A DNA stretch of 64,000 nt from an uncultured bacterium (GTDB taxonomy: Bacteria; Patescibacteriota; Minisyncoccia; Phycocordibacterales; GWA1-40-21): NCBI GenBank assembly GCA_963716205.1, contig OY970290.1, positions 108,906 through 172,905 of the forward strand. Direction: 5' to 3'. The translations under genes were made by a program, and so were the position numbers. The notes beneath the pieces are model-generated. The model had not been told where the DNA came from and made no database searches. It worked only from the letters and a program-made list of their open reading frames with translations. Position 1 is the stretch's first letter; each line of letters starts with the position of its first letter. Shown here piece by piece: positions 10,233 to 13,645 of this stretch.

Positions 10233-13200
10233 GGTTAAAACATGATATCGTATCCGTTGCAAAACGGATGACGAAGAATTGTGGTTTTTAAATTTCCTAA
10301 TGGGAAATTTAAGGGCGTACGGTGGATGCCTTGACTCTAATAAGCGATGAAGGACGTAGTAAAGCTGCGAAAAGCTTCGGGGAGGTGCCAAACAACCTTT
10401 GATCCGGAGATGTCCGAATGGGGAAACCCAGCCGATTTTATCGGCTATTGTATAAATTATATACATTGCTCACCCAGGGAAGTAAAACATTTCAGTACCT
10501 GGAGGAATAGAAAACAATGTCGCGCAAGCGATGATATTTCCTTAGTAGCGGCGAGCGAAAAGGAAACAGCCCAAACCGATCACAAACTTTGCACATAAAT
10601 TTATTTTGTATGTAAAGTTTGTGATCGGTGTAGTAAGGTCAAAACGTCATTTATTTATAGATGAAAAAAGTTACAAAATATATTGTTAGCAGAATCTGCT
10701 GGGAAGCAGAACCCAAGTGGGTAATAGTCCCGTAAGCGAAAATAATATATCTTTTTTGTTTTGATTCTTGAGTACCTCAGGACACGAATAGCTTGAGGGA
10801 ATCTGCCGGTACTAACCGGTAAGGCTAAATATTGTTAGAGATCGATAGTGAACTAGTACCGTGAGGGAAAGGTGAAAAGCAGCCCGGTGAGGGCGGTGAA
10901 ATAGACCTGAAACCGTATGCCTACAAGGAGTCGGAGCGGATCACACAGTGAACGCAAACAGAGAAAATTATTTTTTCTTTTTTGTTTTTAATGTGTGGTC
11001 CGTCACGGCGTGCCTATTGAAGAATGAGCCAACGAGTTGATCTGTGAAGTAGGCTAAGTCCTTTACCGGATGGAGCCAAAGGGAAACCGAGTGTGAATAG
11101 CGCGTTTATTTTACAGATCAGACCCGAAGCCAGAGCGAGCTTATCTTGAGCAGGGTGAACCTTTGAGAAATCAGAGGGGAGGCCCGAACTGTTTAGCCGT
11201 GCAATACTATCGGATGACTTGAGATAAGAAGTGAAAAGCTAATCGAGCCTGGTAATAGCTGGTTCTCTCCGAAATAGCTCTAGGGCTAGCGTTGAATGTA
11301 CCTTCTGGGGGTAGAGCACTGGAAGGTCTTGACAGATAGAAATATCGCAAGACCTATCAAACTCCGAATACCAGAAATAAATTATTCAGCAGTTAGACTG
11401 TGGAGGCTAAGCCCCATGGTCAAAAGGGAAACAGCCCGCATCTCTATTTAAGGTCCCAAAATCTATGTTCAGTACACTAAAGGTGGTAATTTTTCTCAGA
11501 CAGTAAGGAGGTTGGCTTAGAGGCAGCCATCCTTTAAAGATAGCGTAACAGCTCACTTACTAAGAGATTTTGCGCCGCAGATAATCGGGGTTAAACATAG
11601 TACCGAAACTGAGGAATGTAATCGTCTTCGGACGATTGAATTGGTAGGAGAGTATTCAACTCTGCGATGAAGCCAAAGGGGTGACCCATGGTGGAGCGTG
11701 TTGAAGTAAGAATGTTGGCACAAGTAACCACAATGCGGGTGAGAACCCCGCACACCGAAAAACCAAGGTTTCCTTTGCGATGACAATCAGCGAAGGGTTA
11801 GTCGGGCCTAAGGCAATGGCGAGAGCCGCAGCCGATGGACACATGGTTAATATTCCATGACTTTTATATGTTGCGATGGGAGGACGAAGTTTAGTATGGT
11901 ACGCGCATTATTGGATTTGCGTTCGTGCCGTGATTGCGATCTGGAGGTAAATCCCCAGACTTTCTTAAATGATATGCGAAAACGGAGCGAAAATTCTGCG
12001 GTTCGCCGTGGAAAATGTATCACAGCAAGCTTCCGAGAAAATTCTCTAAGCATAAACATGTAAAATCCGTACCGCAAACCGACACAGGTGGTTAGCTCGA
12101 GTAGAGTAAGGTGAACGAGTGATAGATCTTCAAGGAACTCGGCAAAATAGCAGCCGTAAGTTAGCGATAAGGCTCGCCCACAGCAATGTGGGCTGCAACA
12201 AAAGCATCACTGCCAACTGTTTATCAAAAACACAGCTCCCTGCGAAGTCGCAAGACGATGTATAGGGGGTGACACTTGACCAATGCCAGAAGGTCAACCA
12301 ACGACGTTGTATGTAGCAATATATATGGTGATTGTTGTAAGCCCTGGTGAATGTCGGCCGTAACTATAACGGTCCTAAGGTAGCGAAATTCCTTGTCTGG
12401 TAAGTTCAGACGCGCTTGAATAGTGTAATGAGTGGTGAACTGTCTCGAAGATCAACTCGGTGAAAATGCAATACCGGTGAAGATGCCGGTTACCTGCAGT
12501 TAGACGAAAAGACCCTAGAAGCTTTACTACAGCTTGGTATTGAGTATATGTTTTGATTGCGTAGCGTAGACGGGAGGATTTGAAGTTTTTCTTTCGGGGA
12601 AGATGGATCCGCAAGTGAAATACCGTTCTGTTTGAATATATATTCTAATCTTTGAGGCAAAAACTCATAGAAACAGTATCTGGCGGGTAGTTTTAGTGGG
12701 GCGCTATCCTCCTAAAGAGTAACGGAGGAGTCTATTAAGGTCGGCTAGGCGCGAATGGAAACCGTGCCGATAGCATATTGGCAAAAGCCGGCTTGATTGC
12801 AAGACGTAAGTGTCGAGCAAGTGCGAAAGCAGAGCAAAGTGAACCGAAGGTACGTGTTAGACGCGGCCCGGGATTATCTGACAAAAGCTACCCTAGGGAT
12901 AACAGGCTAGTTCCGCCTAAGAGTTCAAATCGACGGCGGAGTTCGGCACCTCGATGTCGGCTCATCTTATCCTGGGGGTGGAGAAGCTCCCAAGGGTATG
13001 GCTGTTCGCCATTTAAAAAGATACGCGAGCTGGGTTCAAACCGTTCAGGAAGTAAAAATTATTTTCTGGACAGTTTGAATCCCATGAGGATTTTCGTTTA
13101 AAGAAAACTTACAACAGGATAAGCAATTTTGTTGTGAGTATAAATAGAGAGAAGACACAATCACATCACGGCGGTCTGATATTTAAAAATATCATGATCA

Positions 13201-13645
13201 AGCTGGTTTATATCGGTGAAATCCCGCAAGGGACAATACCGAGGGAAAATAACAAATTTATTTTTATTGCCCGTAGAGACTAAACACCAGCACTGGAAAT
13301 TTATTTTCAGTAAGCTATAGTCCAATGCATTCAGCAATGAATGAGAACATGCGTGAGACAGGTTGGTCTCCTATCTACTGCAGGCGTAGAATTTTGAGGG
13401 GATTTGACTTTAGTACGAGAGGACCAAGTTGAACGTACCTCTGGTCTATCAGCTGTTCCTGCCAAGGGCAACGCTGAGTAGCTATGTACGGAACGGATAA
13501 ACTCTGAAAGCATCTAAGAGTGAAGCCGTCCCCAAGATTAGAATTCGTTTGAGGACCCTGGGAGATGACCAGGTTGATAGGTTTGAGCTGTAAGCGCAGT
13601 AATGCGTTGAGGCGACAAATACTAATTATCCGATTCTTATTAGGA
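10233..13645 (+). rRNA. rrl: 23S ribosomal RNA, about 3.4 kb including a group I intron of about 305 nt
   Basis: Conserved 23S blocks read directly: AAGGGCGTACGGTGGATGCCTTG near the 5' end, GTACCGTGAGGGAAAGGTGAAAAG, GGATAACAGGCTA, and TAGTACGAGAGGACC...CTGAAAGCATCTAAG near the 3' end. The ends are approximate (about +/-50 nt). Track ORFs inside this span are spurious. Confidence 0.9.
13041..13345 (+). mobile_element. group I intron inserted in 23S domain V, within the GGGTTyArAACGTCGTGAGACAG motif
   Basis: Relative to the conserved CGCGAGCTGGGTT-A-AAC-GT-GTGAGACAG block, about 305 extra nt separate gggttcaaaccgt from gaacatgcgtgagacagg. The insert contains group I core-like elements: an R-like agagactaaa, an S-like ctatagtcc (GACUA/UAGUC pairing for P7), GNRA hairpins, and a G at its 3' end. 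It carries no ORF. Boundaries are approximate to within about 10 nt. Confidence 0.6.

Follow-up and report, generated by a model that had tools for sequence, protein, structure and literature searches.

The 64,000-nt stretch of DNA analyzed here (contig OY970290.1, positions 108,906 to 172,905; in the following "the window", numbered from its first letter) comes from an uncultured bacterium of the Patescibacteriota and carries, as a single copy, a 23S ribosomal RNA (rRNA) gene at 10296-13646, for which a whole-window Rfam scan returned a match of 3351 nt to a model of 2925 positions. A single insert splits the conserved helix 93 (H93) block in domain V of this gene, beside the peptidyl-transferase centre. 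The insert occupies 13045-13351 of the plus strand, on which all exon and intron features of the window discussed below lie; it is 307 nt long and has a G+C content of 35%, as against 45% in the exons. Judged from its sequence, it is very probably a group I intron without an open reading frame (ORF) at 23S position L2593, and a member of a large family found across the Patescibacteria. A first-pass annotation had proposed a group I intron in domain V without a homing-endonuclease ORF, and this is upheld by the full-model Rfam match, the covarying core, the P9.0 pairing and the guide sequence described below; among the ORFs overlapping the region, the longest inside the insert has 58 amino acids and none encodes a homing endonuclease. 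A scan of one genome per species with an exact pattern (P7 3' strand, a gap of 15-45 nt, G plus the 3' exon) returned homologous introns at the same junction in at least 119 species genomes, and the sets of 105, 106, 50, 49 and 40 members used for the counts below were drawn from these at least 119 listed loci.

The ends of the insert were placed by two alignments. In the Rfam large-subunit (LSU) rRNA model, GGGUUCAAACCGU ends at 13044 and CGUGAGACAG begins at 13352; the roughly 307 additional nucleotides in between divide the block GGGUUcAGaaCGUC...GACAG in the local alignment. A global MAFFT alignment with E. coli 23S rRNA gave one 307-nt insertion, 13045-13351, following the U at position 2592 of the 2903-nt E. 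coli copy. The bulged A of GAC-A-G is A2602 in the established E. coli numbering; since this copy has it at 2601, one short of the standard, the site lies between U2593 and C2594, that is, at L2593, which is also the homing site of I-CreI. The 5' exon ends with GGGUUCAAACCGU (13032-13044, E. coli G2581-U2593), the same junction being present in 105 homologues, and its last nucleotide, U13044 (U2593), is the 5' splice-site nucleotide; the 3' exon starts with CGUGAGACAG (13352-13361, C2594 onward), and the last intron nucleotide, omegaG, is G13351. Alignment to 23S rRNA, which the first-pass annotation had suggested for defining the exon junctions, thus yields 13044/13352 by both routes. The limits given there, 13041-13345 with a length of about 305 nt, described a real insert but missed its 5' end by 4 nt and its 3' end by 6 nt, and the 3' terminal G named there, G13345, is not omegaG.

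Shifted junctions, with the 5' exon ending anywhere from 13040 to 13046, were compared by eye. Joining 13044 to 13352 was the only 307-nt deletion checked that leaves a U at -1, omegaG and a consensus helix 93. The ligated exons would read ...GGGUUCAAACCGU/CGUGAGACAGG..., with AACCGU/CGUGAG at the junction, and the restored helix 93 sequence, AACCGUC GUGA GACAGGUU, carries two compensatory changes in the stem relative to E. coli, which confirms the exon assignment. A junction at 13040/13346 was rejected, as it would give GGGUUCAAA+AACAUGCGUGAG and break helix 93; a junction at 13046/13354, rejected too, likewise gives an intron ending in G, but with C at -1 and a loop that departs from the consensus. 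At least 120 metagenome contigs contain the 28-mer that spans the predicted junction without interruption, GGGTTCAAACCGT/CGTGAGACAGGTTGG, and intron-less alleles with the exact 28-nt junction of the window do therefore exist in metagenomes; the ungapped identity of these contigs to the flanks of the window is confounded by indels.

The Rfam model Intron_gpI (RF00028) matched over its full length (model 1-253, window 13111-13344) with 50.8 bits (gathering score 50; E 4.6e-12) when a region of 501 nt was scanned alone. The covariance search envisaged in the first-pass annotation therefore succeeds locally, but the match is absent from the whole-window scans. Since the score is marginal and the whole-window scans miss the intron, independent evidence was sought. 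The fold of the insert has a z-score of -7.2, a core covariance model (R1) built from 40 family members has one match in the window, at 13199-13351, and all core helices, i.e., P3-P8 with the P7 pseudoknot, P4-P6 and P9, could be placed. The P2 hairpin (13175-13197; 13175-13182 with 13189-13197, U13195 bulged) shows compensatory changes at 8/8 pairs. It is followed by the 5' strand of P3 (13202-13207), which pairs with 13286-13291 (6/6 pairs covarying, 99% of cells paired), and by P4-J4/5-P5 at 13213-13242, consisting of P4 (13213-13217 with 13238-13242), an A-rich J4/5 (13218-13221) and P5 (13222-13225 with 13230-13233), which is capped by a GCAA tetraloop (13226-13229). P6 with its P6a extension spans 13243-13272 (P6 proper 13243-13245 with 13270-13272, from the covariation count). 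The 5' strand of P7 ("R", 13276-13282) comprises G13276 and 13278-13282 with A13277 bulged, and is invariant in 50/50 homologues; it lies outside the search pattern, so that this invariance was not built in. The presumed guanosine-binding pair, G13278-C13322, is likewise invariant and adjoins the bulged A13277, in keeping with the known pattern. The 3' strand of P3 (13286-13291) comes directly after P7, with a gap of 3 nt, and the P8 hairpin (13292-13311; 4/4 counted pairs covarying) directly after P3', which leaves no P7.1/P7.2. J8/7 (AAGCUA, 13312-13317) precedes the 3' strand of P7 ("S", 13318-13323), which was taken from the Rfam alignment and is part of the search pattern. At the 3' end, P9.0 (13325-13327 with 13348-13350) encloses P9 (13328-13333 with 13338-13343) within 13325-13350. 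P9.0 alternates between AU (26) and UA (21) across homologues, and the position of omegaG is fixed because it directly follows this covarying helix; P9 covaries at 5/6 pairs and has a GCAA loop (13334-13337) in the window, the L9 loop being GNRA in 106/106 members. The R/S-like P7 motifs of the first-pass annotation correspond to the two P7 strands (agagactaaa, 13275-13284; ctatagtcc, 13315-13323), and its GNRA-capped hairpins to P5 and P9.

The helices were read from the window copy and their pairs counted on an alignment of 50 compact members. Standard pairs fill 94.7% of cells (77.1% in shuffles), 31 of 45 pairs show changes on both sides, and the covariation score is 0.479 compared with 0.149 after shuffling, a value that none of 500 shuffles reached; slid partners score 0.05-0.08. 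Strong covariation is seen in P2, P3, P5, P6, P8, P9.0 and P9. P7 is without any variation in the 50 homologues and hence offers no covariation test. Of the 74 columns with a conservation of 90% or more among the other members, the window copy agrees in 71, and two of the three departures compensate each other within a P3 pair, so that its core looks intact. A bacterial 23S intervening sequence, cut out by RNase III and left unligated, would be a simple extended hairpin in place of the tip of helix 25 or helix 45; the insert does not fit this description, as it lies in helix 93 and has a multi-helix ribozyme fold.

The conserved core also bears on the idea that the window copy is a decaying remnant, which depends on protein (a host factor or a maturase acting in trans) or is on its way to loss. 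Such decay would suit an intron that lacks an ORF, that is among the shortest members (307 nt; range 273-840 nt, median 401 nt, in 105 loci) and whose L2 is without the GNRA loop of many relatives. We consider it unlikely, since the 71 retained positions and the compensatory pair argue for an intact core, 104/106 members are ORF-less and yet conserved in structure, and a non-splicing intron in what is apparently the only 23S gene would be lethal; bacteria of the Candidate Phyla Radiation (CPR) usually have one 23S gene per genome (PMC11270868).

Several points weigh against the assignment as a functional group I intron at L2593. The Intron_gpI score exceeds its threshold by just 0.8 bits, and the whole-window Rfam scans, at the gathering score as well as at E <= 0.001, do not list the intron, which is lost by the filters. 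The 3' strand of P7 and the 3' exon were fixed by the search pattern, and their invariance among the homologues holds by construction. The L2 loop of the window copy is A-rich, unlike that of many relatives (GNRA in at least 51/105, a lower bound from rough automatic loop counting), and one presumed tertiary contact may therefore be missing. Finally, we infer the splicing of an intron that is known here from its sequence.

The predicted internal guide sequence ("E", CACGGCGG, CACG-G-CGG) lies at 13167-13174, directly 5' of P2. Its first four nucleotides (13167-13170, CACG) are complementary to the 3' exon at 13352-13355 (P10), G13171 stands opposite U13044 in the register of a G.U wobble, and 13172-13174 (CGG) are complementary to 13041-13043 (CCG, 2590-2592; P1); the guide matches CCGU/CGUG exactly in the register that places G opposite U2593. 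A G.U wobble at the 5' splice site is near-universal in group I introns. The sequence CAYGGCG(G) occurs in 106/106 family members, the sole variant, CAUG, retaining pairing through G.U, and the distance from guide to splice site is 122 nt in the window and 78-253 nt across the family. UC, the two nucleotides 3' of the guide, change in concert with the 3' strand of P2; P1 is thereby restricted to 4 bp and abuts P2. The calculated duplex energies are -5.7 kcal/mol for the guide P1, versus -2.0 kcal/mol for the competing part of the 5' hairpin described below, and -6.6 kcal/mol for P10. A search by eye for other partners of CACGGCGG within the intron found just 3-bp matches to the P4 strands. We conclude that 13167-13174 is most likely the internal guide sequence, because it is complementary to both exons in register and because its positional homologues in related introns at 23S position L2500 match their own junctions. 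The guide and both exons are invariant, for which reason covariation within the family cannot support P1/P10; support for these pairings comes from complementarity and from positional homology with the L2500 introns, and this counts against the assignment.

On this basis, a conventional splicing reaction can be proposed. The RNA would fold into the standard group I core of P3-P8 with the P7 pseudoknot, P4-P6, P9.0 and P9; CACG-G-CGG would pair with the last four exon nucleotides, CCGU, with G13171.U13044 marking the 5' splice site (P1), and the same guide would pair with the four nucleotides CGUG that open the 3' exon (P10). An external guanosine bound in P7 would attack after U13044, omegaG13351, positioned by P9.0, would then replace it, and ligation of the exons would restore helix 93. 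Catalysis and the order of folding are deductions in this scheme.

The insert might alternatively stay unspliced, either as an expansion segment in mature 23S rRNA or as a segment excised without ligation in the manner of RNase III. A title cited in PMC11270868 announces a group I intron that stays unspliced in Simkania 23S rRNA, bacterial 23S genes do carry intervening sequences, and the window gene itself is extended by 52 nt at helix 25, a classical site for them. The position inside helix 93 at the peptidyl-transferase centre makes this highly improbable, the more so as insertions in CPR rRNA are reported to be removed from transcripts (PMC11270868). Moreover, the ribozyme core, omegaG, P9.0 and the two-exon guide are kept by compensatory change in at least 100 species, and this maintenance implies selection for splicing.

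The region between the 5' splice site and the guide is structured. In the minimum-free-energy fold, the intron's 5' end forms a hairpin, helix Y (13045-13069; 13045-13055 with 13059-13069, loop 13056-13058), in which +1 to +4 of the intron form pairs in 85-93% of 105 homologues and compensatory change occurs at both +1 and +2. The adjoining 5'-proximal exon-binding segment ACAGUUUGAAUCC (13070-13082; counts over 105 members) pairs through 13073-13082 with exon 13032-13041 (G2581-C2590), forming helix X, which we call the exon clamp. A13070 and C13071 are able to pair with U13044 and G13043, while A13072 faces C13042 in a conserved mismatch, and in the fold helix Y runs unbroken into the helix formed by 13070-13082 and exon 13032-13044. 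Across the 105 members, exon positions 2582-2589 are paired in at least 99%, and the clamp covaries at 2586 (CG 97, UA 7) and 2588 (GC 76, AU 25). C2591 is paired in just 2% and stands opposite A in 88 members, whereas G2592 is paired in 93% and the splice-site U2593 in 85%. The latter faces A in 74 members, G in 15, C in 12 and U in 4; since A prevails, a G.U wobble is usually absent from the 5' hairpin. In the continuous hairpin, the splice site is enclosed in a U-A pair, hence not a wobble, beside a conserved C-A mismatch. Nothing 5' of the 13070-13082 segment is able to pair with the 3' exon. Two further hairpins (13091-13107 and 13111-13137), placed by the fold, are peripheral and variable or lineage-specific; an alignment of the 5' regions shows a conserved UUUUCGUUUA motif, and the second hairpin is present in close relatives only.

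These features raise the question of whether the 5' hairpin (exon 13032-13044 with 13070-13082) is itself the catalytic P1 of the same intron, with CACGGCGG serving only P10 or a tertiary contact. The hairpin is conserved and P1-like by classical criteria, which speaks against our assignment: it runs over the splice site without a break, covariation links exon with intron at 2586 and 2588, G2592 and U2593 are mostly paired in it, and it lies near the intron 5' end like the guide of textbook introns (PMC3984707). On the other hand, the splice-site wobble would be absent in about 85% of members (G opposite U2593 in just 15/105), C2591 would be mismatched in 98%, no segment 5' of it could supply P10, and CACGGCGG fits both exons in exact register at the guide position of the L2500 relatives. 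The hairpin was accordingly rejected as the catalytic pairing on the U2593-A and C2591 mismatch counts, and is retained as a rival of low probability. Which pairing acts at which step is likewise deduced rather than observed, a further point against our assignment.

With the distant guide as the catalytic strand, we conclude that the 5' 120 nt of the intron form an expanded, structured L1, of which the clamp on G2581-C2590 is a part. We infer that the weak stretch of the hairpin, with its mismatch, gives way to the guide, so that X, P1 and Y meet in a three-way junction. The L2593 family as a whole may recognize its 5' exon in two parts, by a short distant catalytic guide and by a covarying clamp, with a conformational switch if both are functional; we put this forward tentatively, at somewhat less than even chances. 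If true, the switch could time splicing relative to the folding of the domain V strand of 23S rRNA, and could keep the cleaved 5' exon bound despite a P1 of 4 bp. No description of a distant guide combined with a covarying exon clamp was found in the literature examined, and we offer the arrangement as a testable hypothesis on how an intron handles exon folding at the catalytic heart of the ribosome, not as a demonstrated novelty.

Hosts of the homologous introns, among the matches listed, are nearly all Patescibacteria (Paceibacterota, Moran-, Taylor-, Nomura- and Zambryskibacteria, and metagenome-assembled genomes (MAGs) labelled Saccharibacteria). Both junctions are on the contig in 105 loci, and all of these read GGGTTYARACCGT/...G/CGTGAGACAGG. 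The core of the window copy is at most 78% identical to that of any of the 49 species representatives compared, its nearest relative among the matches listed being L087. The first-pass annotation had called rRNA introns taxonomically restricted and reported in CPR; the occurrence in CPR holds, but within this lineage they are not rare, as the family is widespread in Patescibacteria. One 840-nt member (L053, 1806-2645, minus strand) carries an ORF of 143 amino acids in the P6 loop (intron nucleotides 278-727), with a reading frame that extends into P6' and J6/7. Its product matches Pfam LAGLIDADG_1 (3.9e-11) and is homologous to I-CreI, I-MsoI and I-CvuI along the entire length of these three (E 3.6e-18 to I-CreI), enzymes that are encoded in chloroplast introns at the same site. 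In view of this I-CreI-like gene in a family member, the window copy looks like an endonuclease-less derivative, and it is probably a vertically inherited, immobile descendant of an I-CreI-type LAGLIDADG intron.

Some of the taxonomic labels deserve caution. Patescibacteria-type 23S introns occur in MAGs labelled Bathyarchaeia, Nanoarchaeia or Bdellovibrionales (L011, L101, L027, L114); in L011 the comparison covered the 840-nt L2593 intron, which does not differ from the one in the Moranbacteria contig L053, and this makes contamination of the bin likely. Many matches carry the label Saccharibacteria, and since almost no introns have been found in that group (PMC11270868), such labels may be generic. 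A regular-expression search of the genome loci returned one extra core (L043, 4194-4238), whose exons and site are not definable; several inserts, of which some contain ORFs, break up the 23S gene of this Patescibacteria MAG many times over (L043, 2000-6500).

The rRNA genes of the window are unlinked and in an unusual order. The 23S gene and the 5S gene (13749-13858) come first (10296-13858), and a separate 16S gene without insertion (34388-35907, by Rfam) is found some 20.5 kb downstream, with tRNA-Ile(GAT) and tRNA-Leu(CAG) coming after it (34388-36935 in all). Relative to E. coli, domains I-II of the 23S gene contain further insertions at 10519-10531 (13 nt), 10578-10599 (22 nt), 10615-10683 (69 nt) and 10942-10993 (52 nt), the last following E. 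coli position ~544 at the classical helix 25 intervening-sequence site, and there are deletions at E. coli 172-181, 1743-1768 and 2787-2803. Rfam also reports a LOOT RNA (RF03000), a structured RNA of unknown function, at 41194-41318 (plus strand; 88.4 bits, gathering score 46.4).

For annotation, the 23S gene must be joined at 13044/13352. The Intron_gpI match appears only in a scan of about 500 nt, which implies that genome-scale Rfam annotation under-calls the L2593 family; naive rRNA callers miss the intron, and CPR 23S sequences are at risk of mis-assembly or mis-alignment at the peptidyl-transferase centre. Our findings overturn nothing in current understanding.

The core model further finds related introns at 23S L2500 (U2500/C2501; GGCACCU/CGAUGUCGG) in Patescibacteria contigs without the L2593 intron. 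The L2500 introns include those of L328 (27-287), L280 (6670-6971), L324, L334, L003, L048 and L058, and three of the L2500 introns share their 23S gene with an L2593 intron. They are 254-901 nt long and have a homologous core (63-74 bits with the core model). In 13 of them, AUYG-G-GGUG stands directly 5' of a GNRA-capped P2 and matches their own junction, CACCU/CGAU; in L328, a43-g46 pair with c288-t291 (P10), g47 with t26 (wobble) and g48-g51 with c22-c25 (P1). The layout of P10 strand, wobble G, P1 strand, GNRA-capped P2 and P3 is the same as in the L2593 family, but the guide is only 6-27 nt from the 5' splice site, compared with 78-253 nt, and no exon clamp was seen in the two copies read (L328, L280). 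In L328, and apparently in L280 too, additional hairpins similar to P7.1/P7.2 stand between P7 and P3'.

A likeness to phage introns was found as well. The 15-mer CCGTAGAGACTAMAC is present in at least 120 viral contigs (IMG/VR, L121-L240; four copies in L142), with the TATAGTC strand of P7' following in about 90 of 130 matches, a context that resembles a phage group I intron. Phage introns share with the window the core 15-mer CCGUAGAGACUAMAC and have near-identical J3/4-P4, P6'-J6/7-P7 and J8/7-P7'. Among the matches listed, however, none lies in a 23S gene, as the CGTGAGACAG exon follows none of them, and none contains CACGGCGG; in L164 the guide lies just 5' of P3, near the splice site. 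Most have extra 3' hairpins with an CAGAAAUG motif (CAGAAATG in the viral-contig matches). A possible parallel is the tRNA-Ile intron of Azoarcus (IC3), in which a single continuous strand carries a short P1 that stacks between P10 and P2, the GNRA loops of L2 and L9 act as tertiary anchors, and the P7 strand is of the GUAGAGACUA type; it resides in a tRNA anticodon loop, with a tiny L1 and no exon clamp.

The chloroplast and cyanobacterial L2593 introns (Chlamydomonas Cr.LSU with I-CreI; Synechococcus, Thermosynechococcus; Haugen et al., 2007, PMC1995217) are of subgroup IA type and occupy the identical site after U2593, and the homology of the L053 endonuclease to I-CreI, I-MsoI and I-CvuI ties the Patescibacteria family to I-CreI-type enzymes. 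The cyanobacterial introns are about 745 nt long and have a LAGLIDADG gene, a P7.1/P7.2 extension of about 65 nt and a short P2 (PMC1995217), whereas the window intron is without P7.1/P7.2 and ORF and has a long structured L1. Closest in host, gene and position is the survey of Tsurumaki et al. (2024, PMC11270868), who reported insertions in 82% of CPR 23S genes, 45% of the insertions being group I by Rfam. They counted 222 ORF-less group I introns in CPR 23S genes, clustering around the peptidyl-transferase centre, and described position 2593 ("23IS12") as a frequent site of group I introns, often with LAGLIDADG_1 genes. That survey assigned the 23IS12 introns by the Rfam model; secondary structure, splice junctions and guide sequence are not part of it. 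What kind of intron this is, its host group, its site and its lack of an ORF are thus already published, and the window sequence is a new member of the family, to which, described until now at survey level only, our work adds a well-resolved structural model with junctions, guide, P9.0 and covarying helices.

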